From Camelus dromedarius (taxonomy: Eukaryota): DNA of 64,000 nucleotides. The notes below the pieces were generated by a model, which made no database searches, was not told the origin of the DNA, and saw only the letters and a list, made by a program, of their open reading frames with translations. Numbering within the stretch: the stretch's first letter is position 1; the number at the start of each line of letters is the position of its first letter. Both the position numbers and the translations under genes were made by a program. The stretch is taken from positions 4,650,001 to 4,714,000 of the forward strand of contig NC_087436.1 in the NCBI RefSeq assembly GCF_036321535.1, in the 5' to 3' direction. Of the stretch, positions 28,000 through 51,843 are shown piece after piece.

Positions 28000-28005
28000 T
28001 TTATT
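28000..28005 (-). terminator. Probable ASIC5 polyadenylation signal AATAAA
   Basis: tttatt on +, about 105 nt after the ASIC5 stop. Confidence 0.7.
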
Positions 28006-28110: not shown

Positions 28111-28301
28111 TCAGCATTCCTCTATGCCATTTTTATTTCCCAGACAATTCTGAGGTGGAGAAGTCCCCTGGGTCATGTCCAGTATCTTCAGGAGGAACAA
28201 AATGCAAAGCCAGTAGACATTGGTGAATATATACTCGATAATTTCTATGATCGTAATCACACTGGCCCCACAAAATAGCCCCAGCTGGCCACCGACATCT
28301 G
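28111..28301 (-). CDS. ASIC5: ASIC5 exon 10 (TM2 with GAS filter, C-terminus), (A)DVGGQLGLFCGASVITIIEIIEYIF...NKNGIEEC-stop
   Basis: GGQLGLFCGAS motif; ttacag| acceptor; TGA at 28113-28111; 191 nt; the ten exons sum to 1518 nt. Confidence 0.97.
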
Positions 28302-28834
28302 CTGTAATAAAGCCAATACAGAAAGTGAATAAATCGTGTTTTTTCCTAAAAAGGAAATTAAATGTTATTAGATTTTAAACTGTAAGCTAATAAGTTAATA
28401 ACAATGGGTATTATACGAATATGAGTTAATGGCATTATTTTAAGTTTGGTATAACGGTGTGACAGCAATTAATACCTTAAATATCTTAAAATAATATTCA
28501 CATAAATTATCTCAAAAAAAGAGAGGCAAAAAACGTAACATTTATTTTCAAAAATGTACCTCAAAGACTTTGGGGGATATTAAATCTAGGCAAAATCATA
28601 AAACATCCTATAAATTCATTTCTAAGTGTTGCATGTAGATCAGAAATTGTACAACAGGATGGCATTATTAGGTAATTATGTTTTCCACAAACGAATTTCC
28701 AAGCAATTTGTGGCTTCAGGTGTCCAAACCATATCTTTTTTAAGCATTTGCAGTATTTCATTAAACTAAAATATAGCACTGCCTTTTTTTTTTAAAGAAG
28801 TTTTAAAAATCTACATGCCTTTATTGTTTGCGCC

Positions 28835-29075
28835 TTTTTGTGGTAAAATGTACATAACATAACATTTCCCATTTTCACCAATTTTAAGCGTGCCGTTCTG
28901 CGGCATTACGTACATTACGTTGTTGTGCAACCGTCACCACCACCTCCCGTGCCCAGAACTTTCTCATCTTCCCAAACTGAAACTCTGTCCCCATCAAACA
29001 CTAACCCTTTACTGCCCCCTCCCCTTGCAACCTCTATCCTACTTTTTGTCTCTATCAATTTGACTCCTGAATCAC
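28835..29075 (-). mobile_element. L1MB-like 3' end
   Basis: gtggtaaaatgtacataacataacattt...ttcccaaactgaaactctgtccccatcaaacact. Confidence 0.75.
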
Positions 29076-29741
29076 TCCCTCTGTAAATAGATAATGTTAT
29101 TAATCCTTTTCTCCCCATCCAAGGCCATTCTTAGGACGATGCTATTTTTGTAACTCATGGCGACGGAGTTCAGGCTTCTGCAAGAACTTTGACGAATGTG
29201 TGTGTTTCCTCCCTGATCAAGGGCTCAGCTGCCAGCGTATGATGGCGGTTGCCTGACTCTGGTACCTGCTCCTGTCCCTGACATGCCCTGCTCTAAGATG
29301 CAGTCAGAACTGGGAAATCGGCGGTGACGTTTGCTAAGGACCGAGTGACGGAGGAGCGCTAGCAGGCAGTGGTCGCATCGGCAGTGCCAGATTTTGCTTG
29401 CCTGGTCTCTTTCAACCCATCTGGGTGGAGCTCTGGGTGGAGTCTGAGAAACCTACGCCAGAACTTCGACCCAGAAAGTGCAACACGCAACAATAGTCCC
29501 TTGCCGGGGCGGTGTCGGAGGGGAGGCGGAATGCTGAGTGTGAGTGTGACAGACACAGCCTGTTCTCTGTGAGCGCTTCTGCAAGTTTGCTGGAGGGTGC
29601 CCAGGGAGTGGAAAAGTGTCAGATTTAAATGGCAGGTGGATGACAATCTCTATTGATTCTTTTCCTCCACTGATAAGCTAAACCTTAAAGATGAAAATAA
29701 AAAATCTGATAGAATATTTTTTAAATTGAGGAACGACTTAC

Positions 29742-29833
29742 CAAGTAGCTCAGACACACTGACTGCTTTCTGCTGTTGGGTAATCTTATAGTTTAAGTCA
29801 CCATAGTTTATTTCAATGTTCACAAGATTCTCC
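29742..29833 (-). CDS. ASIC5: ASIC5 exon 9, ENLVNIEINYGDLNYKITQQQKAVSVSELL(A)
   Basis: Manual translation; ccccag| and G|gtaagt; 92 nt. Confidence 0.96.
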
Positions 29834-30479
29834 CTGGGGGTAAAAACAGAGTTAGTCTAGCTCAAGATTGTCAGCACTCCTTTCAATTCCTCTTTGGCAA
29901 AAGTAGCATTTATTTTTGGTTCAGATGCTGTTTAACATCAGATTTGAGAAACATCCTTGTATTCAGTACTAATCACAAGAGCTTCGTTTGGAAGGCGTTC
30001 GTGTTATGTTGGTATTTAGGGAAAAGAATTTTTCCTCTGATCCAATCATTTTTCTATGCCTCATTCCTGAGAAACTGGAAAAAGACATTAAATGTAAATA
30101 TCTCCTGAGTATATTAGAATATTTACAAGCATCTGAGTGTGTGTCTCATTTTAATTCAAATCTTGGTCCTGTCCCGTGTTACTTCTGTGACTCCTGCAGA
30201 AACCAGGGGGATCTCCTGGGTATCAGCTGTCTTATCTGTAGTCAGGATTTTAGAGCTCTCCAAGACGAAATTAAATAATATATGAAAAGAACTGGCATAG
30301 TGCCTGGCAAATATTGGGTGTTCAATAAATGGTAGTCATTTATCTCAAATCATTAATATATTATTTAGGGCAGAGTCTGCTTTCTTACTGTGACCAGAAG
30401 AGCTAACCACTGTTTTAAAATGATAACTCTCTGTGCCATCTCATGCACCCTCACAGGAGCCCAGAGTTCCACCTTGAAC

Positions 30480-30900
30480 TTCACTGATATACTGAATTGC
30501 CTCTGGTTAGTGCTACTTGGATGTTCAATAGGTATTTCAAATCGAACATATTCCAAGTCAAACTCTTGACATTTCCCGACTTATAATACAATAACACTGC
30601 ACAGCCAACCCATCCATCAGTAAATATTTGCTTTACCTTCAAAATAAACCAGAATCCAAGCTCCTCTCACCCCACCCACCGCTACCACCTTTGCCTAAGC
30701 TTCCATCACCTCTCACTGGATTCCGCAGTAGCTTTCCAGCTGGTCTTCCTGCTTCTGACTTTAAGGTAATCCACCCCACGGATACACACCCTTTGTTCTT
30801 CACACAAAAAGCAAAATAATACTCATACAACTTGCAAATCACCTTACTCACCTGCTCAGAACTCCCCAGAGACTTCCCATTATTTGCCAGTGAAACCCCT
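30480..30900 (+). mobile_element. L2 fragment
   Basis: ctttaccttcaaaataaaccagaatcc...agtagctttccagctggtcttcctgcttc resembles L2 3' region. Confidence 0.65.
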
Positions 30901-31219
30901 CCATGGCCCTTATGGGGTTTCCATCGGCCACCACCTCTTCCCAGTGACTCACACCCAGGCAGTCTTGGCCATCACTTCCTCTGCCTCCTGACACACCAAC
31001 CTCATCCTCAATGAAGAAGGCAGAATGGCAGCTTCAGTGTTCCTCTAGCCATGCACGGGGCGTGCTGTTGGCCTATGACCTCCTTCTGTGTTTGGTTTTC
31101 CCTCCTTCTGAAATGTTCTTTCCTCGTGGAGTGCTGAGGCCCCCTTTAGGGAAGCAGCGTTCACAGTGTGGTCGCAGGACCCTAGGGGCCCCATCATCCT
31201 TTCTGGAGGGTCACAGGGT

Positions 31220-32612
31220 CAACGTCATTCTCATAAAATACTAACACATTATTTGAGATTTTCACTAGGCTTGTTGTTTCACGGAAGCTGCAGTAGCCAC
31301 TTGTTAGACGGAATAGCCTTTCCACAAGAATGAATGAATGACAAACTGTGGTTATTCAGACTTTGGTATCTGGCAGACATTTGCAGCAAAAATGAGCAAA
31401 ACAGCTCTGTGGCATTGAGGAAAACAACAGATAAGACTTGTAGTCAATGATAAATGTCAAGCTTTGATTTTACACTGCATTTAGAATTTTGGAAAATTTG
31501 TGTCTGCTATAATGAGCTCAGCTCCCCACTTTTTAAGGACTTTTATGATAGGATAAGTAATGCTATTAAAATGAAGTGTATATTATATAACAAAGTGGAC
31601 TGATATTTGGAAAATGTGCCATAGCTCGGAGAATTTTTCGAACGTCCGGTAAATGATGCTCTGCATCACATGTTCGAAGTGCAAGATCAATCAATACAAA
31701 TACAATTGCGTCTGAACAGTTCACTGATAGGCTTTGACGTTCCAGGGCGGACAGCTTGCAAATGCTCCCCTTCCCTCTCCTCGTTCCCCAAAGAGTTTGG
31801 CTGATAAGAAAGTACAGGGTTTCTCCTTTGATACCTGGGAAGATTCCAACCACACGAACTCTGGTCCTCATCCGGGACCACTCACCCAAGCCCTGCCTTA
31901 TAACCACATGGGAAGGCAAAGCCATCATCCCCTTCTGTCAGACCCACAGAGGTTCTACTTGGGAGCGTGCCCTACTCTTCCCAGAAAGTGTCATTACGGG
32001 AGCAATAAATAAAATTTTCATATCCTCTTGATGCACCTTTGGCATCATAAATCTCACTAGTCTAATCAAATTTTGAGTGGATAGTTGGTCCCAGTCCCTG
32101 TGGGACAACTGTAAGAAACAAACTGCAATGAACACTGAAGAGAGCACACTCAAGGTTGGATGTGTCATCAAGGAAAAAAATCACAGTTATCCGTAAAGGC
32201 TATTAAAACATACCCCCCCTTTCCAGCTACACATCTGTTTGACACAAGCAACTGTTCTCCAACCAAGCAACATAAACCAACAGGTTAAATGCACAAATGA
32301 GAATCCAGCTTGCTTCTACTAATTAAGCCAGACTCTGAAGCAGTCAACAACCTTCTGAACCAATACCCCTTCTCTTCCAACATTGATTTTGCCTTGGAAA
32401 ATGTTACTGTTTGTAAAAAGCTTTCACTTACATTACCATGCAGTACAAGTATTATTGCTATTTTCAGTGAATTAGTCAAGAAAAGAATTTCACAGCTTAA
32501 ATTTCGAAAATGGCAATTACTGCCACTTACGTCTCACACGAAGAAAAGCTCAGTTGGACTCAGTGATTTTTTTAAGAGTACAAAGTGACCTTGAAGCTAA
32601 AAAGTGTGAGAG
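31220..32612 (+). mobile_element. Charlie1-like hAT transposon relic interrupted by an LTR (about 31735-32110)
   Basis: gacaaactgtggttattcagactttggtatctggcagacattt and cacagttatccgtaaaggctattaaa...atgagaatccagct resemble Charlie1; the insert carries AATAAA. Confidence 0.65.
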
Positions 32613-34513
32613 TATAAATACAGTTGAGTCTGAACAATTCACTGACGTGTTTTGACGTTCCAGGGCTGACAGCTTTCAAATGCCACCTTTCCCTCTCCTC
32701 ATCCCCGAAGAGTTAGGCCGATAAGAAAGCCTAGGGCTTCCCCCTCAGGCACCTGGTTTAGGGCTTTGCTCGGCTGTCACCTCCCAGGAAGACCTCGCTG
32801 GATCATGCTCCTTGGTGCCGAGGACCACCTCCGCCTGACCCGCCTGTACACGCTCACCGTCCATCCTCACCCGGGGGGGAAATGTATCAGGGCAGGGCTT
32901 GTGTTTTACGCTGACATGTCTCTAGCTTTGAGAACACCCTGGAGCCCTGACACACAGTAGGCCCTCCCTGCATATTTGTAAAATGGACAAGTAAGGGAAC
33001 ATGTTGAAGATGAAACCAATGAATGAACAGATAAATATTAATCTGTCTTATAAGCCGAGGTGGAAACCAACCAGCTGATGACTTTCAGAGGCAACAATAA
33101 TTATCATTACGAATAGATCCTATTAGCAAAGTTTCCTGGAATTAGGTGGTGTCAAAATACATCTCAGAAGCATGGCTGCAAATCACTGTCTTGATTATTT
33201 ACCATTTCAGAAATCAATATCCCCAAATAGAATTAATTCAAAATTTATCATTAATGTGTTTACTTAATTTCTATTGGTTTAACCCTGGGCAACAGGAGAA
33301 TGTCCTGTCTTTAAGTAGATAATTGGAGGGTATTGTAATATTTGCAAATAATAAAACAGTTTGCCAAAGTGGAAGAACTAATAAAGTTGTCTTAGGAGCC
33401 CAGAAATTTTAGTAATATTGCGATCTTTTTGTCCTCCACGGTGCTCCTAATTTGCATGTAAACTGATAATTCTGTTTGATTTCCCTAGCACAAAACTTGT
33501 AGCCATTTCCAAGCATTAGTCATTTGTGTTTTTGAGAGAAGAGAATTTCATTCTCTACAAAAACACTGTGACGTGTATTTTCTCAGGCAGGTTACTTGTC
33601 CCGTCTACACCTCATGGTGATAGTGAAACTGTTCAGGGTTTTAGCCCAAGAATATTTGTTTATGTCAGGAGAGGCACAATTATGAAATAAATCTGGATTT
33701 TAATAAGGATGAGAAAATCAAAGAAAAATAGTTCACTGCGTTTACAAAACAAAAATACTTCTGGGTGCTTGAATGTAACTGCTGTATTTAGGGGAATAAA
33801 TTTGTTTTGCATAAAGTAAATAATTTTATACAAATTTTACCTAAGAATGTGTTAAATTAAGGCCAAAAATTTTTTAAAGTTCATTTGTTTTGCTAATGAA
33901 ATTGACCTAAATTCAGCCACAACTGACCGGTCCATTCACTCCCACGTGGCCTGCTTCTGTCAGGCTAAATTCTTATCTTCGTCTTAATGGAATTCAGTCA
34001 CCGCTGTGTGGGGCTCCGGACTGGTCCTGGTCTGGTGTTGCTTTGTTTCAAATGTTCGCAATGCTAAGATTTTATATCTGCTTTCCTGACAAACTACTTG
34101 TATTTTCTGATTTACCACTCTTTGATTTCTGGTCCCCGTGTACAAACTGGTGTTTTAATTTATGTGTGACTTCTAACCACCGGCTCTGACTAGGATCTGG
34201 TCACCCTTGAGTCCAGCTGCGCCGATCCACCACCTGCCTAGTGGCTTCCCCTATCCCAACCATGTATGGGCCACACATGTCAGTTACATGATGAGATTAA
34301 CCAGATAACTACTTCTAATAAAAGTTTTAGGAAAAAACAAGCTATGTTCTCTAGGACCATCTTGTTTCACAATGGATTTCTTTTCTGATTCACCAAAACG
34401 TCTCCAACATCACGCCTACATTCTCTGCATGCTAAATAGGAAACTCAGGGGCTCTCTCAGCCAAAAATCACACAATGTGCTCTTCTCAGTCACAGTTAAA
34501 TAAGGAGTCATAC

Positions 34514-35014
34514 TGTAATAGAGAACAAACCTGACTATATTGGATCTGTTCCTTTAGCTTTAACCACTGTGCCCTGCTTTCTAGGCTTAGCTCTGTACCT
34601 TCTGTAAAACAATGTTGCCTTTAGCCTGAAATGTCCAGGAGAGCCTATTCTCAGGGCTCTGAGCTTTAAGGATGTTAGGTCTTAAGCACTTATGTAGCAA
34701 TGGCAAGTTGCAAAATAGAGAATAACCTCTGTTTTGTTAGAAGTTTACAGGGACATCATGATCTGGCCCACGTGGACGGCTGCAAGAACAAAGAATGCCT
34801 GCAGCAAGAAGTTTGCAACAACCAACCACTTGTATTTTTGTATAGAAGGAGCCCATATTCTGACTGGAGCAGGATGGTTCTCCAAGACATTAGTCTGCCA
34901 TCCTGTCAGTCTGTAAGCTTTCCGAATAAACTCACTATTCCTTGCCCCGACACCTCGTCTCCTGATTTATTGGCCTGTCGTGCAGCGAGCAGAACGAGTT
35001 TGGACTTGGCAACA
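34514..35014 (+). mobile_element. Intact solo ERV1 LTR, MER41-like, in ASIC5 intron 8
   Basis: TGTAA...AACA termini, exact 4-bp TSD ATAC, internal AATAAA, 3' end gatttattggcctgtcgtgcagcgagcag. Confidence 0.8.
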
Positions 35015-36044
35015 ATACTCTAAGTACACCAGTTTCCATATTAAAGTGAAATACAAATAGATATCTGTACTGGAGATCAAAGTGTTAACAAAGATATAAT
35101 TGTGATTTTTCTACTTTACATCTTTTTATCTGCTAAGTGTTTGAAATGATACCTTAGCAACCTTGTCTTGATGAAAATACTTTTTCTTCCTGATTTGAAA
35201 GAATGCTTTACTGTCTAGGCATTTACGCAGGAGAGCGTTTTTAGTTTGTTTGTTTGTCTCATTAAAATAAATACCAGCTTAACACTGGAATCAAAGCATG
35301 CTTTCAGAGTTGGAGCCTTGACTGCATAAAAGTAAATCAGCTTTTAATTAGTTAATATACTTTATTATAATAGCTGTAAGTACAAACACCAAATGTACTG
35401 TGCTGCTATTTCAGGTTTTCAGCTTGAAAATATAAATAAAATACAAAGAGAAATGTTAAGGTTGCTCCCCGACTTAAAAATAGAGAGTTCTTTATGACGT
35501 TTGGTTTGTAATTTCTAAGAGGCATGGTGTAGCAGAAAGAAACCTAACAGAGTCCTCAGTTCATCAAAACTGCCATATGTCTCGGTGGAAATATATTGAG
35601 TCGTGGGCTTTGGGCATAAATTCCTTGTGTGAACTACCTTCACAGGATGGTTTCTCAAAATGCCAGGGTCCTCAGTCCCCTCGTCTGTAAAATGAGGCTA
35701 CTCCATGCTCCGTCTACCTTAAACAGTTCTTAGAAGACTCAACTATAATAATAGACAAGAAAGAGATTTCATGTTTACACAAGTGAACTGATATTAGTCA
35801 GCATTATTCCCGGTTGGGCCAAAAAAAGGTAAGATCATAAGCAAATTACTCAGGCTGGCCTCATTTTACCTTTCGCTCAATTCAATTAATTCAATTTTCT
35901 ACTTTTAGAATTCTAGGCTTCCACCGATCATTCACTAATGTAAGTCATAGCTTCCTTCGGTTGATCAGGATTTCATGTCCCAAGTCTTTGAAAATAAAGA
36001 AAATATGTTAATTACAAATAATTTACCAGACTGAAAAAGGTTAC

Positions 36045-36213
36045 CTGATGTAGTCCCAGCTTCGATTCAACTTCCTGGAAAGATGTTTCAAAGCTTGGTG
36101 ACTTGGAAACATTGAGTAAGAAACAGTAGCAGGGTACTCCGTTTCTTCACAAGGGACAGGGCAGCTGGAATTATGTGTTCCCTTTGTACACAGTCCCTTA
36201 ACTTCAATGTGGT
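36045..36213 (-). CDS. ASIC5: ASIC5 exon 8, (D)HIEVKGLCTKGTHNSSCPVPCEETEYPATVSYSMFPSHQALKHLSRKLNRSWDYI(R)
   Basis: Manual translation; atttcag| and AG|gtaacc; 169 nt. Confidence 0.96.
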
Positions 36214-36517
36214 CTGAAATGAAAATTAACCCAGGAACTCAGAGAAGAGGACTACTCTATTCACAGTGGGCGGAAAGAGCTTTTTAATATTTTGTCATTT
36301 CACTTTCAATGCTTAAAACTGTGGTTAACAAGTTCTATCACTACTTTAACAAATGATATTCATATTTTATTTATATTTTAACTTAATACAGCAAAACCTG
36401 ATTAATGACCAACTTCAGGCTTGTTTTCCAGACTCTATAACATTGCTTCCCCTTCAGGCCCTGACTTTTGTATGTATCCTCTAGTTAGACTACTGGCAAA
36501 ACCCACCACACTTTACT

Positions 36518-36759
36518 ACACACACACACACGTACACACACACGTACACACACACACGTACACACACATATACACGCACGGATGCACACATACATGTATA
36601 CATGCACACACATACACGCACACACGTGTACACACATATGTACACAATACACGATATACATGTACACACACAAACGTACATACATGTACACACATACCCA
36701 GTACACAATACACATACATATACACACATACACGTATACACATGTACACACATACACAC
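36518..36759. repeat. Complex (CA/TA/CG) alternating purine-pyrimidine repeat, about 240 bp
   Basis: Directly visible. Confidence 0.95.
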
Positions 36760-37743
36760 TTTCCTGAGCCCACTATTCCATAATACGTGCATGATTTGTT
36801 TCCCCAAACTTCCCCCACAGCCCCCGGCAGGGGTGTGAAATTACAAGAAATTGACAACGTAACTTTACATCAGTGGTCGGTGATAGGACTTACACGTATT
36901 CAGCTTGCGAGCTATTAAAACCATAAGATCTCTCCCACCCACACCCGTTCCATGAAATATGTTACCGCCCTTGAAAAGAGCCTGTAAGTCTATTCCTGTG
37001 GCCCTGGAGACGTTTTCACGGTGCGTTAGAGCAGCAGGTTTCATAGAAGGGGATATAATATGATTCCATCTCAATGAAATAACCAGGGACCTAAAGTCAT
37101 AAATATGAAGCTGCATTTGTGGAGAAAATTAGGGCTGAGTATTCTAGAGTGTTAACACTGGTTGAAAGTTAAGAGAGATATAAGCAAAAAAATGCTGTTT
37201 AAGAAGGTAAAGGTGGCATGTATGGTTGTGACTCCACTTATGTAAAATTATATCTGTGCACCTAATTATGAAGCACATGTAATGAAATGAAGAGTAAAAG
37301 AACAGTCACCTAAGCTGTGACAGTAACTCTCAAAGCGGTGCTACGTCTGCTGACTCCCACGTGACTCTTTCCTATTTGTGACGTCTGCACTAGTCACAAC
37401 AAGCATGCTTTATTTATGTGATGAGAAAAATCAATGAAGCTATTTTGACTGTAAAGTTTAAATTAAAAAAATTAGAAATAAAACCCAGAGGTCTCTTGCT
37501 GTTACTTTGTCACTGCGTACCTTTAATTCAGATGTATCTTGAAATCACAGGGCTTCCTGTTTCGTTTTACTGTCTGTGTCTATGTAAGCTATAGTTGCTA
37601 ATTTTAAGGACGTTGAAAAATTACCCCTTATAGCCTCTCCTGTTTCATTTCTGAACTATCCACAGTATGATGTAGAGTCTTGTATTGCTCTGAGCAACTT
37701 TCATATAAATCCTGAAAATAAAGGAAGAAATGAAGCCACTTAC

Positions 37744-37800
37744 CGAGTACGGGAGACACACAGTTGTAAAACTTTTGCAGGTCACACTCTACCCCGTTTC
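37744..37800 (-). CDS. ASIC5: ASIC5 exon 7, (G)NGVECDLQKFYNCVSPVL(D)
   Basis: Manual translation; ttttaag| and G|gtaagt; 57 nt. Confidence 0.95.
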
Positions 37801-38402
37801 CTTAAAAATAATAAGTGTAAATATAGACTTTACATTTTATGAAATAAGTGGCATAATGACAAAATACCTTCCATCCATCCATCCATTTATTCTTTTGCAA
37901 AAAAAAACCCCGTGAAAACATAACACCCCGCGGAAATCCACACTGAGAGGAAGGATAACCGTGGTTTTTTTTTTACTTCCACGTTTCTTTCCATCTGTAT
38001 CATTCTAAAATCTTCTTAAGCAGTAATAATAATTTTAAACTGCCCCTAGTTCTGAAATTTAAAATTGCTTTTGAATTTATCATCCCATTCTTTTTCTACT
38101 GTAGTCCAATGATGTGGAAATCATCGTTTTACAAATGAAGAAACCCAGGTTCAGAAAGTGGCCTGAGCAGTTAGGGACGAATGTCCTGTTCATTCTGTTC
38201 ACCTTCCACCCCACGCCCTCTGCTCACTGATTTAAACTGATACGCACTCGCACACCCAGTCGGCTGCATTTCCAGTGGCAGGGTGGGCCAGGGAAGTGCC
38301 AACAGTTGTTAAGCACCTGCTGTGGACCTTGAGACAAAATCAGTATGTACCAGAGCTGGGTTTAATCCCGGGCTGACTTTAAAGACTTAGCCTCTGCATC
38401 TT

Positions 38403-38537
38403 TTTATTGATTTTGGGGGTGGGGTGGGAGAGAGGAGGTAATTAGGTTTACTTATTTTTCAGTGGAGGTACTGGGGACTGAACCCAGGACCTCGTGCATA
38501 CTAAGCACACGCTCTACCTCTGAACTATACCCGCCCG
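38403..38537 (-). mobile_element. tRNA-derived SINE, Vic-1-like, in ASIC5 intron 6
   Basis: Same family; exact TSD ctgcatctt at 38394-38402 and 38538-38546. Confidence 0.9.
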
Positions 38538-39456
38538 CTGCATCTTCATACAGTATTTGTCCATTGCTATAACCCATGTATCACAGGTTAGCCTCAGTGT
38601 GTAGTTAATGGCCCTGAAAATGACCAAAAGAGATCGTCCACTTACAACTTGTGGGTAAGTTCAGTGGACTAAGAGGAAGTGTGCTTTGTGAAGAAGTGAA
38701 AAATGAAAAAAATCTACCTCCACCATTGTTGGTAAATAGCTCTCTTTTCCAAAATGTTCCTTCTTTCTTGCAATGGTATTTCCCCCACTACAAAGAAGGA
38801 TGGAATTCAGGAAATGGCCCATAGCTGAGAGGCTGGCTTTGACAACGTCCTCTACAACGTGTTGGTGGAGATTCTGTAGCGAGTCCGTGTAATAGCTGTA
38901 AATCTCAGTTTCCTCACCGGTAAGTTGACTTAGACGGATGCGTGAGGACCAAACCAAATGACACATTGTCCTGAAAACACTTGATCGACCCTGAAGTTTG
39001 TGCAAATGTCATGCCTGTGTTTCATACTTTCTCTTGCCTAGTTTCTGGTCCATATTACTCAGCTTTTGTTTTGTAAGAAAGGAGACATTTTAAAAATATA
39101 ATATCATTTTCCATCTACCAGTTCAGACTTTTCCCCAGTAACTTTGGAAAGATAATTAGGAATGAGGTCACACTGAGGAAACCCTGATAAGCAGCTTTAG
39201 CTACTCGAGAGCACCCAGCTGAAAATGTGGAAAATGAGACCTGGGGACCAGCTCAGACAACACAGGGCTCTTTCCTTTTCCAGAAATCTCTACTATGAGT
39301 CCATGATGTACAGTCTGCCGGCTGCCATTTGTCAAATGATTGACTTTGCAGCGTAGACTTTCTTAAGCATGGAAAAGAGTTCCATGACACGTTTATCTCC
39401 GTGTCTTGGGTTAAGCACCTAGAAGTCAAGAGGGGACGCAGCCGTTGTCTATTTAC

Positions 39457-39604
39457 CAGGAAGCAGGAAGGGGACGCATCCACACAGCTGCTCTATGTGC
39501 CGAGCTTTGCATTCCTTCAGGCACCCACAGGTGCTGTATGTCCTGAAATTCTGCAGCTGGATGTGAGGGTTGCATTCTCCCCAAGGGTATTCTTGATGCA
39601 CTGT
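39457..39604 (-). CDS. ASIC5: ASIC5 exon 6 (thumb), TVHQEYPWGECNPHIQLQNFRTYSTCGCLKECKARHIEQLCGCVPFLLP(G)
   Basis: Manual translation, PWGEC and CGC motifs; cttaag| and G|gtaaat; 148 nt. Confidence 0.96.
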
Positions 39605-40523
39605 CTTAAGACAAAGTCAACACATGGTTGAGGAGATTTTTCTGAGCTCACTCACGCACCTCCTCCCCAAGAAGAGATACACATCTTCACTTTTCTCTCG
39701 AAGGTCACTGATTTTTTTTTTTCCAGTTGACTGCATTTGTGTATTTTGCCTACTCTGTTAACCTGAAAATCCCTGGAAGTGAGTCTAATCGTTGGCCTTT
39801 AACACACATCCCAACTGCTCTGTGCCTGCAGTGAGTCGATAAAATCAGACCGACTGCTCTAAAAATTAACTCCCACAAGGAAAAGTGGTATCCTTTATGG
39901 AAATGATATTTTAGCATCTCACTCAACCCACGCACAAACCAGCAACCAAAATCACAGAGAAAACCCTGCACTGAGGACCTACTGTGTGCCAGGCAGGATG
40001 CTTAGCGCTTTCTTCGTGTCATTTCACTTGAATTTCCTGATAGCTGTGAAAGGAAGTACCCCCCACCTCCCAGTGTGCAAATAAACGTCCCCTGCTCCGC
40101 AGCCCCCAGTGTGCAGAGAGGAGATGGAAATTCGGGAGGTGAATCGAGGAAGTTACAGGGCAGGGATCTGGCAAGTGGAAACCAGCCAGACACTTCTGAC
40201 CCCAGAAACCCTGCTCCTCCTGCAGACTTTCTCCTTCTCGAATGCCCCTCTGAGAAAACGCACAGTTCAGCCCCCTGGGCATTTCCTCAGACACTGTCCC
40301 TTCCAACTGGAATGACAGTCAAAGTGTAGCTGGACTTGGTGAGGCTGCCAGCGTTCAGTTATATTGTGCATGTGAATTCACTGTTTCATGACATGTGAGC
40401 CTCCCTGTAAGGGATCTGAATGGAACTATGGAATTTCTGGGGTGTCAGAAGGCCTGGGAGAAGGGTGTGTCCACGCAGAGGCATTAGGGATGTCCCTCGG
40501 GCACTGCGTCTGCAGACGCTCAC

Positions 40524-40673
40524 CTTCACCTGGCGGATGGTCACCCGCGCGTGCGTCCCCACTGGCGACAACAAGCCTAAGCCGTCCAGCTGTGGCACCT
40601 TCACGGGCGAATGGATCGCAAAGACGATCCCAGCATCCACAAAACCAAGGGTGGGGTCATCCGTGAATTCCTC
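40524..40673 (-). CDS. ASIC5: ASIC5 exon 5, EEFTDDPTLGFVDAGIVFAIHSPVKVPQLDGLGLLSPVGTHARVTIRQVK
   Basis: ORF 40386..40718; tttcag| and AAG|gtgagc; 150 nt. Confidence 0.97.
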
Positions 40674-41169
40674 CTGAAACCAAAATGTGCTTCTTGTCAA
40701 ACTGCAAGTAGACGTCAATGCTGCATGATTTTAAGATTGCATGTGGTCATCTCAGGAGAGCACTTGCCTTGCTTAAAATCAGGTATCTCGTATCAGGATG
40801 CCATCTCTTTTTATAGGAAAGCGGCGAAAGTTAAACCCCTAAGACATACTTTTCAAGGCTGATTCCCACTTCTAAGCTTGGAAGGTTTCACACGGATGTT
40901 TGTCACCTTAGGGGGCAGTCACAATGCACATCATGACTGCTCCTCGCCTGATGTCCCCGGGCCTCTCCTCCCCTGCTTGCCTGCAGTTGCTTCCTCCTTG
41001 GCTGTTCTCTTTGCTTCATTTGCTTTACAAAATTATTCACCCCACTTCTTCTCTTTGCAACAAAAATATCTGGTCTTACTTAAAAGGCAATTCATTTTCC
41101 CACAAAAGTGAAGACTCACACTACTTCCTTAATGCTTTTATGGGAAAATGAATTTAAGTTTTACAAAAC

Positions 41170-41820
41170 AATTTTTTAAATCATTTTTTAGTTGATTTAC
41201 AATGTTGTTAGTTTCTGATGTACAGCACAGTGATTCAGTCATACATACATATCAATTCTTTTTCAGTTTCTTTTCCATTATATGTTATTACAAGTTACTG
41301 AATGTAGTTGCCTGTGCTCTACAGTAGGGTCTTGTAGTTTATCTAGTTTATATACAGTAGTGTGTCTGCAAACCCCAAAGTCCTAATCTCTCCCTCCCCT
41401 CCCATTTCCCCTGGGGAGCCACAAGTTTGTTTTCTATGTCTGCGTATCTGTCTCTGTTTTGTAAATAAATTCATTTGTGCCATTTTTCAGACTCCACATA
41501 TAGGTGATATTATTTGATGTTTTTTTCTCTGACTTAACTTCATGTAGTATGATAATCTCTAGGTCCATCCACACTGCTACAAATAGCATTATTTCATTCT
41601 TTTTATGATTGAGTAGTATTCCATTACATACATACATATATATATATATATGTATGTATGTCACATCTTCTTTATCCAGTCATCTGTTGATGGACATTTG
41701 GGTTGTTTCCATTCCTTTTATGCCCAGGAGTGGGATTGCTGGATCACATGGTAGGTCTATTTTCAGTTTTTTAAGGAACCTCCATACTGTCCTCCACAGT
41801 GGCTACACCAATTTACTATT
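41170..41820 (-). mobile_element. 5'-truncated L1 3' end
   Basis: Same family as 25100-25765; ORF 41434..41664 has L1-like EIMLFVAVWMDLEIIILHEV. Confidence 0.9.
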
Positions 41821-43117
41821 TACATATACCAAGATTTTCTATAAACCTTCTGTCAGATGAGCCAATTTAAGACTAAACTTCTGGTGCCTTTGCTATTAGC
41901 TGTGATTTCAGGCCACAAGGAGGGGGAGTGGCCTTGCGAATGGGGTGGTTTTTCTTGTCAATGAGTCAACTGCACATGAGATTGCATTTAATAAATATGC
42001 TTCATCTTGCATCTGAAACTCCGGACCCTATTTCCCCTGGTCCTGTCATGACCCTCCAAGGAACACTTAACTGGCTAGTCTGGAGAAATATTTCAGTTCT
42101 ATTTACTTGTGGAATGTTGCGTTGAATTTGCGGATTTTAATTGTATTCTAAAAATATTTGAGAAACTTCAGCTTGTAAAATTAATCATATAAAATTCAAA
42201 GTGACCATCTGGCTAATTCTTAAATAACATGAAAATATTGATGAAGTAGACACAGGAGCAGGGTACCTGCACTGCTTCTGAACATGAAGGAAAGTGTCTT
42301 GAATGGATGCAGGTGGCAGTTACGAAGCACACCTTAAGAGAGATTCCTGGCATGTAACCAGTGGCTTTGTTCACTAGGATTGGGGAGGTGGGTACCTTGC
42401 TGGAATTCAGGGAGGCTAGTTTTATTTCTCATCTTTGCCATCAATTTCTTGTGATTTTGGATACTTCATTCAACAGCATTTCAGACTTTTTGTTTACAAA
42501 ACCGAATACCTCTAAGTGTGTAATGCTAGAAATGATTGTGCAAGACAGAAGGTAAGAATTAACCTTGGGTGAGAGCTCTACCAGGAACTCCTGAAGCGAA
42601 CACCACTGCATTCTCAGGTGTCTGGACACATGCTTCCTTAGAACTTCTTGGACCAACGACACACAGAGCTAGGCAAAGTCCAGTAACACAACACTTTTGC
42701 AAAGCAAGTTTGTCATCAGCGTTTTGGAGTATGGATCCTAGGACTTGCCAAATGTCTGTGTATGGCTTCTTTCTAAACATATTACCTAAAACCTAAGAAT
42801 TATTTTTAAAATGCATAAGGTTGTCTTAAATGAACTATGTGCATTCTGATTTAGAAATCTCTAGTTTCCTTGTTTTGTGGCATGAACATTTCCAGAGTCC
42901 TAATGATGATAGTAAGTAGTACAGCTAAAACTATCCAGGTTCTGCCTCTCAGTTGTGCCTTTTTAATCTCTAAGCCAGTAGTTTGTTCATCCATAAGACT
43001 CTTGGCTAAACTAACAAAAAATGAACTCATGAGAACATCTCCCAAGACAAACGGTTCTGAAACTCCCACACATTGTTCCTGTCCTGAACCCTGGTTCAGT
43101 TTAAGAAAATTCAATAC

Positions 43118-43243
43118 CTGATTGATGTTGAAGAGCAAGCTTAAGCCTCTTCCAGAAACTCCCACTTTTCCCTTTGCTTGGAGGTTGTCGCCATGATTAA
43201 AAGTAAAACAGTTTCCATATTCAGTGAAGACGTGCACAAAGTC
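43118..43243 (-). CDS. ASIC5: ASIC5 exon 4, DFVHVFTEYGNCFTFNHGDNLQAKGKVGVSGRGLSLLFNINQ
   Basis: ORF 42851..43237; YGNCFTFN motif; tttgag| acceptor, CAG|gtattg donor; 126 nt. Confidence 0.95.
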
Positions 43244-43867
43244 CTCAAATACGAAAATAAACCGAAGAAACTACAATCAGCGGGGTGCTCTGGCCACTTT
43301 GGAAGTTTGCATTGCTCTAAAATTCTTTTCTTAATCACAGGGCCTGAAGTGAGAATGAAGAAACAGCAGAAAACACGGCTCACCTGGCCCTTTGGGTTTG
43401 TATCCAGTAACAGTTGTTGGGTTTCGTAAGCCACACTTGTCAATCTGTGCAGGAGTATCTAATTGAGACATTTTCATGCACAGATGGCTCCTGAGCAACA
43501 GGGGAGTGACCTGCATGGGTCCCTTGTTTTCAATAAATGTGCACTAAGTACTCCCCGATCCGGGGTTGGTTGACTCCTTGGCAGGATATAGACAAATGGA
43601 TAAGGTTTTCCTTCCAGAAGGACTATCACCAGAGATGTCTGTTCCCTATTTTTCCCTTTCAAACTGCTTGAAAAAGGCAGTATGTCTCACGTGTATGCTA
43701 TGCCCCTGGTATCATAAGGCTGAACTAATGAAATATAATGAAATATAATCTTTGGTTGATCAAATGCAGACTGATTCTCCATAGGAGTAAACTTTATCTC
43801 AGTGTGAAATGGTGCAATGAAGTAGCTTATTATATTGACGGTATTTGAAGAAATATGGAATCCTTAC

Positions 43868-44105
43868 CTCTGGGCCACATGGCTTTCCAAAGAAGTCGCA
43901 TTCTAACAAAGTGCTCCTGTTGAGATAAAAACCTTTTTTCTTGACGAACTCCGTAATGCTGAAGTTTTGGTGACTTGCGAGAAAATCAATAGCCTCTTTA
44001 GAGCCAGTGGAATTGGTACTGATTTCTTGAAGATGAAGGACTTTGGATACAATGTGCCATAAGAAAAAAATAATGCCAAATTTGGTGGCAGCTTCTGTCT
44101 GGAAC
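43868..44105 (-). CDS. ASIC5: ASIC5 exon 3, FQTEAATKFGIIFFLWHIVSKVLHLQEIS...LLECDFFGKPCGPE
   Basis: Manual translation, open frame; taatag| and GAG|gtaagg; 238 nt. Confidence 0.96.
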
Positions 44106-44419
44106 CTATTAGTGGAGATAAAGGCGGTATTTAGAGGACTCTAGCAGACCATGCCTGGACCCCGTCGTCTCTTCCATCTTATCTCCTCATTTATAATACT
44201 GTGATAAAAAACAGGTCCCTAAGAGGTCTTTGTCGCCTTCTGTAAACTACCTTGTGTTTCTGCACATTGTTTCATTTGCCTAGAATGCCTCCCAGCCCTT
44301 GATCTGGGTACTTCTAAAGGGACCTTCAGGACCCAACATCAAGAGTGGTGGGAATGGGTCACTGCTAAGAATGAGGACTTAGGAGCAGACTTCTAGGTTC
44401 AAATCCAAGCTGGACCGGA

Positions 44420-44616
44420 GGTGGTGACACACATCTACCTTCCTTCTAATCGCCAGTCCTGCTGACTTCGGGTCCAGCCCCAGAAACAGAGGCAGCAGAC
44501 CTACAAGGACTTCTTTCCAGCCCCTGTGATTTAGTGGGGCTCAGCCCCCATGATACATTCTTTATGCTTTGTCCCTCATGGTGGTTCTGCTCGTCTGATC
44601 AAGGCCTGATTTTTAC
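44420..44616 (+). mobile_element. MLT2-like LTR 3' fragment nested in a MIR
   Basis: Ends tggttctgctcgtctgatcaaggcctgatttttaca; MIR-like ggttcaaatcc flank. Confidence 0.45.
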
Positions 44617-44984
44617 AGCCACTTCACAGGGTGACTTAGTACATATTTTCGTTTCACTGTGACTCAGGGTCCTCATGTGTAAATCTAGTGTATGTTAATA
44701 TATGGTACACATCATTCCACTGGTAGGTTTTAATATATCCCATCTCAAAATGTTACTTGTATGGTCAAATTATTTTTTTCCAAAACATTTAGAAGAGTGC
44801 CTGGAATATGGTGAGTGTAAGGCAAATATTTATTCAATAAATGCCTCTTTATTGTCAAAGTGACTTCTTGGCAGTTAAAGTAGAAGTAGTCCGTTTGCTT
44901 AATAAGTACTTTGTTATTTTATTTTGCTGAGCAATTTCTGCCTTGCATTATGTATGGTTCTTTATTTTCATAACTTACATTTCT

Positions 44985-45810
44985 TTTATTTCTTTTTTAT
45001 TTTTTTAATTGACGTGTATAGTCAGTTACAGTGTGTCAGTTTCCAGTGTACAGCATAATGTTTCAGTCATCCATATACATACCTGTATTCCTTTTCATAC
45101 TCTTTTTCATTATAGGTTATTATAAGATATTGAATATAGTTCTCTGTGCTATACAGAAGAAGTTTGGTTTCTTAAATCTATTTTTATATATAGTGGTTAA
45201 CATTTGCAAATCTCAAACTCCCAAATTTATCCCTTCCCATCCCCTTCCCCCACTAACCATAAGATTGTTTACCATGTCTGTGAGTCTGTTTCTGTTTTGT
45301 AGATGAGTTCAGTAGTGTCCTCTTTTTTCTTATTTTAAATTTCACATATGAGTGATATCATATGATATTTTTCTTTCGCTATCTGACTTAACTTCACTTA
45401 GAATGACGATCTCCAGCTCCATCCATATTGCTGCAATATTTTATTCTTTGTTATGGCTGAGTAGTATTCCATTGTATAAATACACCACAACTTCTTTATC
45501 CATTTGCAAACATTTTCTCCCACTCCATAGGCTGTCATTTTGTTTTGTTTATGGTTTCCTTTGCCGAGCAAAAGCATATAAGTTTATTTAGGTCCCATTT
45601 GCTTATTTTTGCTTTTATTTCTATTGCCTGGATAGACTGCCCTGGGAAAACATTGCTAAGATTTGTGTCAGAAAATGTTTCACCTATATTTTCTTCTAGG
45701 AGGTTTAGTGTCTTGCCTTATGTTTACGTCTTTAAGCCATTTTGAGTTTATGTAAATCAATGAAGTTAGAACACTCTCTCACACCATACACAAAAATAAA
45801 CTCAAAAAGG
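44985..45810 (-). mobile_element. L1 3' end with internal deletion and short 5' inversion
   Basis: Antisense L1 to about 45751, then sense ORF2 piece aaatcaatgaagttagaacactctctcacaccatacacaaaaataaactcaaaa. Confidence 0.85.
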
Positions 45811-46899
45811 CCCATTTTTAAATCAAGTTGCTTCTTTTCTAATTTTTAAGGTTTAATCACTCTTTGTATGTTCTTGATGAGTTCTTTACCAGATACATCT
45901 TTTGCAATTATTTTTCTCATTCTGTGGGTTGTCTTTTCATTCTCTTCAGTTCTGTTGTCTTTAATAATATCCTGGGGCATAAGTTGCTTCAGCGTGTAAG
46001 GTAGTTAAATTTGGGCCTTTTCACAGCAGATTTTCAGACCAGTCTTCGAACATTCTTCTGACCCCAGGAGGACTCCTCTTTCTTGGATTCCCACTGTAAA
46101 ACTAGCTAGGCTGTGGTTTATCTTGTTCTTTTTATGGACTTACTAGCCTCATTTTGGTTGTTTACCATCAACATCTGTGGTGTTTTTGAGAGCACCCTTG
46201 GACTTGAGCTTTACAAGTTCTCTGTTACAGGCCAAGGCGAACTTCGCCACGCTCTGTTCTAAGCGGAATTCCCTTAGGGAGAGCCTCATGGCCTGCCTTT
46301 CCCTCCAGGCAAAATATTTACAAGGAGGGTTCTGAGCAGGGGTGTGGCATATGGTCTTCTGACTTTGTCTCTCTCAGTGCAGAACCTCCATCCTTGGGCA
46401 GGTGGAGATGAGGGTGATTATTTCAACCTACCACACCCTAGATAGAGCTTCTGCCTCATAAGCAGGGGTCCCTTAAGGAAGGGAGCCTCCAGCCGCCTAA
46501 CTGTACTCGTCTGGAATTCAGCCTCTGCGACACAGAGAGGGATTGGATGGGGAATGTTGGCAGCCTGCATCCGCCAAGGCACAGGGAGCCCTCGACTGGA
46601 AACTGGGAGGAGAAGGAGCCCCGTCTTCCTGGTCAAACCCACCTGGAGTGGAGCTTCTGTCACACTGAGACAGAAACGGGGAAGGAAGGAGTGGTTTGTG
46701 ACTCAAGTTCTGTAGACTCTGCATGTTCTTGTTGCAATTGCATGCATTTTCTTGAGTAAGTATTTCTGCATTCTCTGTATCCCCTGAGGACAATTTCCAG
46801 ATACTTTAAGTGGTTGTGTATACATGCACACATATATATATGTACACTTTATGATATTCTAATTATTGTAGTAGATATAATAATTTTCTCTTTTTTCTG

Positions 46900-47830
46900 C
46901 TAAATTTTAAAAAGGGTTACCTCCTGTGATAAGAATACTTAGCAGATCGGTCCTCCTAACATTGGAAGTGTGCAGTGCAGTGAAGCTGAGTGTGGGTACA
47001 GTGCTCTACAGCACATCTCTAGAACTCATGCGTCCTAATTAACTGAAACTCTGTGCCCTTTGACCAGAAACTCCTTGCTTCCATTACCCTCGGCCCCAGG
47101 CCCTGGCAGCCACATTGCACTCTGTGGCGCTATGAATTTGACTATATCCAACACCTCACATAAGTGCAGTCACGCAGTATGTGCATTTCTGTTACTGGCT
47201 TATTTAACTTAGCATAACATCCTGAAGGTTGATGCACATGGTCTCATTTTACAGAATTTCCTTTGTTCTAACAGCTGAATACTATTCCACTTTGTGCACA
47301 TTCGACTTTTCTTTTGTCCATTTGTCTGCCAGTGTGCATGTAGATTGTGTCTAGATCTTAGGCAATGCCTATGGGAGTGTTAATATCTTTTCAAGATCCT
47401 GATTTGAATTCTTTTGGATAAAGACTTAGGAGTGAGATTGCTAGATCATATGGTAGATCTATTTTCAATTTCCTAAGGAACCTCCATCCCGCTTTCCGTA
47501 GCAGATGCACCATTTTGCATTCCCACCAACAGTGTGCAAGGGTTCCAAGGTTTTTACATCCTCCTCAACATTTGTTGTCCTTTTGTTTTTTTGATAATGG
47601 CCGTCTGATAGGTGTGAGGTGATATCTAATTGTGGTGTTGATTTGCATTTTTCTGATGCTTTGTGACCCTGAGCATTTTTTCATATACCTGCTGGCCATT
47701 TGTAAGCCTTCTTTGGAACAGTGTCTATTCAAGTCTTGAGTACATTTTAAATTGAGTTCTTAGGAGTTTTGTTTTTGTTTTGTGCTATTGAGTTGTAGGA
47801 ACTCCTTCTATATTTTGGTGATTAACTTCT
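46900..47830 (-). mobile_element. Old L1M 3' fragment
   Basis: gagtgagattgctagatcatatggtag...ccattttgcattcccaccaacagtgtgcaagggttcc. Confidence 0.85.
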
Positions 47831-49262
47831 AAATGGTTGATTTTTTTAAATAAAATTCACCAATTATGGTTGTTTCTCTGGGAAAAGACCTCTGAGGGCC
47901 CTCATACCGCCATTCACAAAATAACACAGGCCTTTCCCTTTAATGAAGGATATTTTCAACGAATCTTTGCTTTTTTTAATGGCTATGGATTCTTTTTTTT
48001 TTTTTTTAACACCTTTATTGTGTTATGGTTCCTGTAAACTACACATATTTCAGATGTGTAATCTGATGGATTTTGATAGGTGTATATACACCAATGAAAC
48101 CACTACCACAATCAAGATAGCTAGCATTTCCATCACTCTAACCAATCTTTGCTTTCGTTAGAACACATACCATTTAAAATACCATGGGGCAATAGCATTG
48201 AAACTCTTTAGGGAGGCATTTGATTGACTCTTTGGGACCTTGATATATACCTTGATACATATCTAACGACCACACAAACAAGCTGTAGTATCTAGTGCAT
48301 ATTGAACACCTGTCCAAAGAACTCCCAGGATGGCACAACTGGTGTCTGTATCACCTCATCTCACGGAACAGCAAACGTGTAATGTAGATGACATCATGTC
48401 ATTTCTTACCTACACAAATTGATGCTTAAAAAGCTGTAATGACTGGCCGATGGTCAAAATAGCCCATTAGTGGTGGATCTGAAGGAAACCACGTCCCTGC
48501 CCCAAGGCGCACCTCCTACCTGTGGTTGTTCAAGTTGACCACAGGCGGTTACAAGGCTCTTCATGGAAGATCTCGTGTGGGAAGGCTGCCCTCCCCACAG
48601 GAGACCTGGCGCACAGGCAGCAAACTGCACTCTTCTGGAGGGAGCTGTGGTCAAGGCCCCCCAAACAGCAGAGCACTGAACCAAGTGCGTGCACAGGTCA
48701 CACACCCTGGGAGCTGGCTGTGCTTCTCTTTGAGTAAGTACCTTGTCCCGAACACATCAGAGATCTCATGTCTCCATCCTTTGCACAGCGGTTCCCTCTT
48801 GGTCCCCCCTGCACACTGGTCATCCTTTGACACCCAGACTTCCAGGACATAGACAGAGACTGTCCCCTGTCCTCTGTTCTCTCAGAGCCCCTGCACACAC
48901 CTTGAGTGTAACGAACAGTTACCACACATATCGCCTTGTGATTACTGATATTTCTTTCCTTTTTACTAATTAACAAGCTTTTTAAATGCAAGGATGAAGA
49001 CTTATACATCTGTGTAACCACAGGGTTTGGTGCTTTGCCTAGCATAAAATTGTGGGAGGAAAGAAAGAAGGAAAAGAGGGAAAATAAAGAAGAAATCAGT
49101 CAGCTTCTTTGCCCCTGAATGTGTGTTTTTAAGGACAATATAAGAACTTCAGTAGTCTTATGTATATTAAATATCACATAATAAACTCTATTTCAGTCAT
49201 CCAAGAAAAGTTATACTAGTGAAGTTATGGAGACTTGTTATTATTGAAAGAGTAGTTTTTAC

Positions 49263-49569
49263 CTGTTTAAATTGCAAAACGTCACAGCCGGGAACTCTAT
49301 ATTTTCCACGTACTGAACCTCCACGGACGTTGTGGTGGGCCAGGTGAAATAGTTGATCAGGCGACCGTAGATCTGCCAGACCAGCAGCAAGACCGAGCCC
49401 AGGACCACCGCCAACCAGACCACCTTGCGAATTTTGCTCCGGTTGTGGACAATGTTGTGTACACCATGGAAGGAAGTGGAGGTGGCAAAGTCGTGGTCCA
49501 GCTTCTCTCGGTCACTGGGAGATGATAGAGATTTCTCTGAAAGGTAGAGCCTTATCTTTTGCAAGAGTC
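49263..49569 (-). CDS. ASIC5: ASIC5 exon 2 (HG motif, TM1, FPAVTFCN)
   Basis: ORF 49259..49564 with STSFHGVHNI and EFPAVTFCNLNR ENaC/DEG motifs; ctcag| and AG|gtaaaa; 307 nt. Confidence 0.97.
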
Positions 49570-50569
49570 CTGAGATTTAAAAATAATAAAACAAACAAAA
49601 AGGTAATGAGTTAGGAAACCCTAATGCTACATGCGAAAAACAAGACCCACGTAAGTTTAAACATGTTACCCTTTTATGTGCCTGCATGAGGACTCAGAAT
49701 TCACCTTGAGTTGCATGGCTCATTTGGGGTCAAGAAATAGAAGTGCTGACTGCAGGGGTCTAATGAGAACATGCCGATGCTCTTCAGAGGATGCTTCTTG
49801 CTGATGCAAACCTCTTGGCGCCATCGTCTTAATGTGCTGGTGTTTTCGGTTTCAATCAATCCACCCTGAATGGGTTGCTTTCGACAGCTCTTAATCTTTA
49901 AAAACTTAGCTTCTGGCCCAGGCACAGTGACATGTGCTACTTTAGCCAATTTTTCAATCTTCCTAAGACTCCGTTTCTCTTCTGTCAGATGGAAGTAACA
50001 GCCTCTGCCTCACGAGTTTGTTGTGAATATTAAATGAATGGGTGGGTGGCTTAGCATGTTACCCGGGCCAGGACAGATCCTCAATTCCTATTAGATATTT
50101 TGTCACTCTGCTCATTTAGTAGTGATGTGATAAATGGCAAAATACTCAAGGATTTTTAAACACTGTCTAAAATTCTCATCTAAGAGTTGAGTTCTTAATG
50201 GTCTCACAAATGCTGGTAACTTGGTGAATTAACTTGTATATCCTTTACTTCAATTCAGAAAGTATTGTTTCTGTCAACTGCTCAGCATGAATGCACTTCT
50301 AAAGGGTTTCATTAAATCATCATCTAATATTTCATAAGTCTAGTCAATTAGCTAAAGTTAAGTCATGAGATATATAGTGATACATACAAGATATATACGT
50401 TTCCTAAGGGACTCCGTTTCATCTGCAAAGTGCTGGGACGCAGTTACAAATTATATTCTGATTATTTTATAGAGGCTGTACACCAAGCAGGAAATTGTGT
50501 GTTAATCTGGTTAGCTTGACTTTGAACTAAGATTTTATACTTGCTCCCCATACTGGGTTCTTAAAAATT

Positions 50570-50885
50570 TAATTTTTATTTTTTATTGAAGTGTAGTCAA
50601 TTTACAATGCTAGCTTCAGGTGTACAGCAAAGCGACTCAGTTATACATGTACATACATATGTATTTTTCATATTCTTTTGTATTACATGTTATTACAAAA
50701 AACTGAATACAGTTTCCTGTGCTATAAAATAGGCCCTTGTTGTTTATCTATTTTATATACAGTAGTGTGTGTCTGCTAATCGCAAACTCCTAACCCATCC
50801 CTCTCAGCTCCTTTCCCTCTTGGTAACCACAGTTTTTCTTCTTTTTTCTGTGAGTCTGGTTCTGGTTTGTAAATAAAATTTGCAT
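50570..50885 (-). mobile_element. L1 3' UTR fragment
   Basis: ttttattgaagtgtagtcaatttacaatg...tgtaaataaa, same family as the other young L1 ends. Confidence 0.8.
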
Positions 50886-51803
50886 ATACTGATTTTTAAA
50901 AAAAAAAATGAATTAAGAGATATATATGTATAAAGTAACTGCACAGTCCCAGAGCAAAATCAGAAATGTAAGAAAAGTTATGGTTATTATCCATAAGCAA
51001 AATAAATTTAATAATGCTCTTTTATGTATAATTTAGCCACTGGCTACAAAGACCTGTGAAGAACTGAGTCTGACAGAAGGCCAACCCGGCCTCTCGGTAT
51101 CTGACACCCTTCCCACCACAATGGAAGAGTAAATGAGTCATCAGTAATTGATCAGCCAAAGTATGGCTGGTTGGAAGCATTACCCTGAAAATATAGATTT
51201 CAAGTTGATCTGTCAAGACCCAGCTCCTTGAATATAAATTTACTCCTTGACGATTACCTTGGCTTTCCCGGCATGTTCTCAATCACTTGCTAAGGGTTTC
51301 GAAAGAGTTCTTAAAACAATATTGTTTTAGGTGGAAGGTGAAGAGACAAGGTGATGTGCTGTTGGGGAGATCAGGATTGGTGTAACGCAGAGCCTGCCAG
51401 CCTGCGAGCCGGCGACGCCTCACCCTCCCGGCTGGAAGTGTGTACTATGCAATCACAGCCAGTGCTCTGGAACTGAACCCTCTTCTTCACAGAAGCACTT
51501 CGGGGAACATGAAACAAGTTCTGCTGTATTTTAAACCGAAAACTGTAGGCACATGATAAATAGAAACCAACAAAACGCAACAAAATAAAACCAAAAGGCA
51601 GCCTAGCATGGAGTAACACTGTGAAACTACATACACGCGACTCCCTCGTACACATTACTCTCCTGCTGTTACTCATACTATACCCGAGCAATATCGGAGA
51701 TCAAATTTCCACAGTGACAAATAGAAGTCCCCTTTCTGTTGCTAATTTCTAGCTTTTAGGGATGCAAATTGTAACTGTTCTGGGGATTTTACCCTTTACC
51801 CAC

Positions 51804-51843
51804 CTTCTCCAACATGAGCTTTTGATTTCTCAGTATGCTCCAT
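51804..51843 (-). CDS. ASIC5: ASIC5 exon 1 coding part, MEHTEKSKAHVGE(G)
   Basis: Reverse complement ATG GAG CAT ACT GAG AAA TCA AAA..., like recalled MEQTEKSK; G|gtgggt donor; 40 nt. Confidence 0.92.

Follow-up and report, generated by a model that had tools for sequence, protein, structure and literature searches.

The CAGCAG tandem acceptor between intron 9 and exon 10 of the dromedary ASIC5 (BASIC) gene is best explained as an incidental tandem, in which the intron-proximal site dominates and any use of the distal site is stochastic (probability about 0.8). As it stands, it is an ordinary member of a catalogued class. The gene lies in the 64,000-nucleotide stretch of DNA analysed here, referred to as the window, and the choice between the two sites would decide whether a single residue, Ala443 at the degenerin position of the channel, is kept. 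To our knowledge, no mammalian DEG/ENaC channel is less well understood than BASIC/ASIC5; its resting activity varies among species, for reasons that are only partly explained.

Gene model and the two possible joins

Alpaca ASIC5 (P0001), the best match of a protein search, was aligned to the window by tblastn and gave ten collinear pieces from 51843 to 28114 on the minus strand. With the same protein as template, a protein-constrained splice-site search yielded a spliced model with GT-AG at all nine introns, a CDS of 1518 nt and a product of 505 aa that is identical to the alpaca protein at 487 of 505 residues. The following features are used below.

28111..51843, minus strand: ASIC5/BASIC coding region, starting with the ATG at 51843 and comprising 10 exons and 505 codons, modelled on alpaca P0001
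29742..29833, minus strand: exon 9, 92 nt, with donor G/gtaagt; its last base, G, is the first base of codon 443
28302..29741, minus strand: intron 9, 1440 nt, phase 1
28302..28304, minus strand: intron-proximal CAG, serving as acceptor in the standard mRNA, with exon 10 starting at 28301; this model fits alpaca ASIC5 and keeps Ala443
28299..28301, minus strand: intron-distal CAG, made of the last two bases of Ala443 and the first base of Asp444, as seen in the sequence and the translated joins
28111..28301, minus strand: coding part of exon 10, for TM2 (ADVGGQLGLFCGAS...) and the C-terminus; the stop codon occupies 28113-28111
28320..28326, minus strand: predicted branch point A and pyrimidine run, proposed from consensus and pattern counts
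28000..28005, minus strand: AATAAA, by its sequence a likely poly(A) signal, about 105 nt past the stop codon

Three of the four exon translations tested, exon 10 among them, matched PF00858 (86.1, 25.5 and 31.1 bits; cut-off 23.6 bits). The best PDB match of the exon 10 peptide was 'Acid-sensing ion channel 5' (505 aa, E 2.9e-29), with far weaker matches to ASIC2 (8.7e-05) and ASIC1 (about 1e-4). ASIC paralogs from the same genome shared only 58% identity with the window ASIC5 across TM2. The window gene is thus an intact, ordinary ASIC5/BASIC gene of the DEG/ENaC family and not one of ASIC1-4. A scan of prokaryote genomes (bacterial and archaeal) for contaminating orthologs gave two matches, both of them chance bacterial ones. 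A TA-repeat and A-rich low-complexity stretch at about 27895-27945 (minus strand) lies just downstream of the likely ASIC5 poly(A) site.

On the minus strand, the boundary between intron 9 and exon 10 reads ...ggctttatta CAG CAG ATGTCGGTGG... (in a longer read, ATGTCGGTGGCCAGCTGGGG), and exon 9 ends ...GAGCTACTTG/gtaagt with its final base G at 29742. This motif, the end of exon 9 and the two junctions 29742->28301 and 29742->28298 had been described in the initial annotation and proved exact to the base. Likewise, its figure of 1327 nt ahead of exon 10 is exact in the spliced model, and together with the 505-aa product this count makes the Ala443 numbering right for the window gene. Translation of both joins also bore out the proposed frame. 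In the proximal join, G (29742) and CA (28301-28300) form Ala443 and the peptide runs Ala-Asp-Val-Gly-Gly-Gln... from there, with Asp444 next to Ala443. In the distal join, with exon 10 starting at 28298, G and AT form Asp and the peptide is the same without Ala443; this one residue is lost in frame and no stop is made. With AGs 3 nt apart and C as both N bases, the acceptor belongs to the NAGNAG class, subclass HAGHAG/YAGYAG ('plausible').

Origin and earlier record of the tandem

The presence of a CAGCAG tandem at exon 10 is not beyond chance. About 6% of human acceptors are of the NAGNAG type according to the TassDB paper, and in the window ASIC5 two of nine are (CAGGAG at exon 5, CAGCAG at exon 10). 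Because G begins the codon after the one that phase-1 intron 9 interrupts, a second CAG arises whenever the Ala codon is GCA. The exon 5 acceptor (cag/GAG, 40671-40676, minus strand) is the second NAGNAG of the gene; it is expected to be constitutive, since the row for human ACCN5 exon 5 (N2=G) in the table described below gives P(E)=0.99.

Orthologous and paralogous acceptors were compared with that of the window. A sauropsid-like ASIC5 last exon (locus L001) has the acceptor tattacag/CTGATG, which encodes the same Ala-Asp with GCT and forms no tandem. It occupies positions 1-629 of a metagenome contig and shares 78-80% identity with the proteins of monitor lizard and turtle; this vertebrate exon inside a metagenome record is presumably host DNA. 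Since the sauropsid-like exon has CAG/CTG, the tandem is not pan-vertebrate. Among the three orthologous acceptors compared, it was found in human (in a published table) and in the camelid window and was absent from L001; being common to human and camelid, it is at least tolerated. In two ASIC paralogs on other contigs of the same genome (L003 and L004), the codon of the degenerin-site Gly is split at the same place, in phase 1. One of these has the acceptor CAG/GAG (a weak tandem) and the other CAG/GTG, both with strong polypyrimidine tracts upstream. As judged from these sequences, the intron position is old and the tandem depends on the third base of codon 443.

The tandem is already known, as its human ortholog has stood in a public table, with a prediction, since 2009. 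In supplement file 3 of Sinha et al. 2009 (PMC2699507), which is derived from TassDB, human ACCN5 is entered twice, for exons 5 and 10. The exon 10 row gives N1=C, N2=C, phase 1, the bases T and A ahead of the tandem, A behind it, and G at the upstream exon's final position. It counts two proximal and no distal ESTs and carries the label E, while the Bayesian network predicts P(EI)=0.65, P(E)=0.34 and P(I)=0.01. The window agrees with this row in 13 of 14 features (eight of nine upstream bases and five others), if 'posK' denotes the base K positions upstream of the tandem. On that reading, the two orthologous acceptors differ in one of the nine upstream feature bases (G for T, 15 bases upstream). 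As the human motif had been tabulated with a prediction, it is less new than the initial annotation implied. The table entry holds only the prediction and the 2:0 ESTs, and the degenerin position of the residue goes unmentioned in it. Our literature searches retrieved no paper tying the ASIC5 tandem to the degenerin residue and none reporting an ASIC5 splice form.

The degenerin residue and the predicted effect of its loss

In alignments to solved structures, the exon 10 peptide begins at D444 of the human ASIC5 chain. The Asp at this position, next after Ala443, is matched with residue 433 in full-length chicken ASIC1. The residue before it, G432 of chicken ASIC1, corresponds to G433 of human ASIC1a and is the 'degenerin' site according to PMC5309578. 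Ala443 is therefore the degenerin-site residue, and the assignment of residue 443 to the Deg position in the initial annotation is upheld by this alignment. The degenerin substitutions at chicken ASIC1 G432 and human ASIC1a G433 concern the same aligned residue, before a conserved Asp in outer TM2. Known degenerin variants are side-chain substitutions that alter gating, whereas the window case would be a deletion, with the register of the helix shifted.

Substitutions of A443 are said to have opened BLINaC/INaC in work by Sakai et al. in 1999, and a study by Ilyaskin et al. in 2018 reportedly concerns the degenerin region of human BASIC. In the literature searched, no deletion data for the degenerin residue of DEG/ENaC channels were found. 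PMC4216111, PMC10148893 and PMC8536179 contained nothing on the degenerin residue of BASIC; the 'A443' in PMC8536179 refers to mouse ASIC1a.

According to PMC12283945, which describes the surroundings of the residue, the blocking Ca2+ of human BASIC is bound just above the G447 gate by two carboxyl rings, which E440 and D444 (TM2a) form; once Ca2+ is taken away, TM2a rotates and the pore opens. E440, A443, D444 and G447 are all kept in the window protein. The same paper discusses neither variants nor splice forms at residue 443, and 'A443' occurs in it 0 times. From the geometry of a helix we infer that deletion of Ala443 would change the spacing of E440 and D444 from i/i+4 to i/i+3, and would put the rest of TM2 out of register with the extracellular domain, by about 100 degrees and 1.5 Å. 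Such a perturbation would be coarse; conceivably, Ca2+ would no longer block, the channel would leak or the subunit would misfold. Because the spacing of the Ca2+ rings changes, the deletion is likelier to be damaging than to act as fine-tuning.

Use of the distal site and competing readings

The splicing cues at the ASIC5 tandem are mixed. The predicted branch point is the A at 28326 (ttcAc), 25 nt from the end of the intron. The sole pyrimidine run of at least five bases by pattern counts is CTTTCT (28325-28320), 19-24 nt upstream, and the polypyrimidine tract is weak and interrupted by purines (14 pyrimidines in 20 bases). The nearest upstream AG in the intron 9 acceptor region is at -46, and the base preceding the first CAG is A (28305). 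According to Bradley et al. (PMC3250501), splicing has an inherent preference for the proximal site, a purine ahead of the tandem drove minigenes strongly towards that site, and short, distant polypyrimidine tracts were associated with more distal use. That CAGCAG belongs to a much-used alternative class, as the initial annotation had it, agrees with PMC2875228, where it is a strong wobble motif, and with the TassDB paper, where 39% of HAGHAG sites are EST-confirmed.

The window tandem shares with NAGNAG/YAGYAG acceptors in general, as treated by Hiller, Bradley, Tsai and co-workers, the two AGs 3 nt apart, C at -3 and a single-residue indel. As for these, which site is chosen is expected to depend on the bases at -3, the one that precedes the tandem and how far away the branch point lies. 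It differs in its location, since used NAGNAGs typically lie in polar, exposed or disordered regions and the window tandem is located where a pore-lining helix begins. Ordered protein regions are depleted of plausible NAGNAGs, which prefer exposed, polar contexts (PMC2279118). The persistence of a tandem at the head of the pore helix is, on these grounds, most simply explained if it is little used.

There is no sound evidence for use of the distal CAG; the site in use is what we infer from spliced models and transcripts. Residue 443 was compared over 63 ASIC5 proteins (Ala in 58, Gly in two, Ser in two, absent in one). Two of these are open frames on unspliced DNA, which leaves 61 spliced models, and residue 443 is kept in 60 of them (Ala 56, Gly 2, Ser 2). 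The four proteins with a residue other than Ala are P0005, P0063, P0054 and P0060, of which two have Gly (a pangolin, a shark) and two have Ser (both frogs). The one model without the residue, P0026 of the tiger, was rejected as evidence of a deletion because it is a poor model and irregular at several other places; compared to the lion model, it lacks about 83 N-terminal residues and has a 16-residue insertion as well as gaps of 11 residues and one residue.

Further, 32 short protein fragments were inspected. The exon 9/10 junction is spanned by two of them, P0064 (a spliced Logan fragment) and P0070, and Ala is kept in both. Ten others run from the intron into exon 10, 19 run from exon 9 into the intron, and the remaining one is P0074. 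This Logan-derived fragment continues from exon 9, after ...ELL, into a short and unrelated tail with a stop, and was set aside. The tail has no counterpart within the window, and the fragment hints that some species have an alternative or cryptic last exon. Exon 10 sequence occurs in 13 sequencing runs from five studies, with two of the runs recorded as RNA, which is no evidence of expression or of either junction. ACCN5/ASIC5 was not found in seven supplement files of Bradley 2012, a tissue RNA-seq study of NAGNAGs, nor was ASIC5 in nine supplement files of Mironov 2021 (PMC8055015), a GTEx-based catalogue. These absences are uninformative because ASIC5 is so narrowly expressed and because the full Mironov table lay outside the search. 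Since transcript sampling is tiny (two ESTs, two fragments), a minor form of 5-20% would easily be missed; that the distal form reaches at least 4% in some tissue is possible, at somewhat less than even odds.

According to the preferred reading of an incidental tandem, the YAGYAG motif exists because Ala443 happens to have the codon GCA, with the first G of the codon for Asp444 next to it. For the main mRNA the spliceosome would take the intron-proximal CAG, giving Ala443-Asp444, and the distal CAG, 3 nt further on, would at most compete at the second catalytic step. Distal choice would then yield a minority of transcripts without Ala443 by stochastic 'wobble' splicing, and the product lacking Ala443 would be an unregulated by-product, probably an impaired subunit, and no gating switch. 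The incidental nature of the tandem is argued for by the facts that GCA alone suffices, that L001 is without it and that the paralogs split the same codon without CAGCAG. Dominance of the proximal site is argued for by the 60 of 61 models, both junction fragments and the 2:0 human ESTs, all of which keep the proximal form; the inherent proximal preference, the A ahead of the tandem and the depletion of NAGNAGs in ordered regions point the same way. The human P(EI)=0.65, the 13 of 14 shared features, the validation rate given below and the short, distant tract speak against this reading, as do the tiny transcript sampling, the sharing of the motif by human and camelid and the tiger model. In a second reading, the distal site would be used constantly and substantially but without regulation, the subunit lacking Ala443 being a poison or leaky partner in the trimer and a tolerated cost. 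In PMC2699507, predictions in the 0.5-0.69 band were confirmed (minor form at least 4%) in five of ten tested cases, and its authors conclude that the NAGNAG mechanism is simple and stochastic; both statements, with the network prediction and the weak, distant polypyrimidine tract, favour constant distal use. However, neither the two human ESTs nor the two fragments contain a distal transcript, and a harmful form present at a high level would be purged by a synonymous change of GCA to GCN, as in L001 (compare PMC2279118). We regard constant distal use as unlikely.

A regulated 3-nt switch, in which the distal CAG is used in dependence on tissue or state and a functional subunit lacking Ala443 tunes resting BASIC activity through a changed Ca2+ block or open probability, is very unlikely. 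The gating-tuning interpretation of the initial annotation is a legitimate hypothesis: the strong wobble motif (PMC2875228) is common to human and camelid, the human ortholog is predicted to be alternatively used (P(EI)=0.65, PMC2699507), and a change at residue 443, between the Ca2+-binding E440 and D444, would be felt (PMC12283945). Yet neither a transcript nor a sound protein model with the deletion is present among 61 models, two fragments and two human ESTs, and the sauropsid-like ortholog has no tandem. The purine ahead of the tandem favours the proximal site (PMC3250501), tandem acceptors avoid structured regions (PMC2279118), and a deletion in the helix would turn everything beyond it by about 100 degrees, a coarse and not a fine change. 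ACCN5 is also absent from the Bradley supplements, which may only reflect low expression. In a more specific form, mammals would use the distal CAG in dependence on cell type (cholangiocytes, unipolar brush cells, enterocytes or islet alpha cells, for instance), Ca2+ would block less well at the i/i+3 rings, and the splice choice would set the resting open probability; this form is slightly less likely still, and a regulated gating switch overall is given a small chance. If true, it would be a natural 'degenerin' variant that arises from splicing and not from mutation. A real splice form without the degenerin residue would give cells a built-in means to alter Ca2+ block and gating, and a used NAGNAG within a pore helix would be a rare case.

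Apart from the tandem, the TM2 sequence of two big cats stood out among the aligned proteins. The tiger and lion models (P0026, P0027) read GGQLDLF, with Asp replacing a conserved TM2 Gly, and all of the other 61 ASIC5 proteins read GGQLGLF; the big-cat sequence may reflect either a genuine change in that lineage or decay of the gene.
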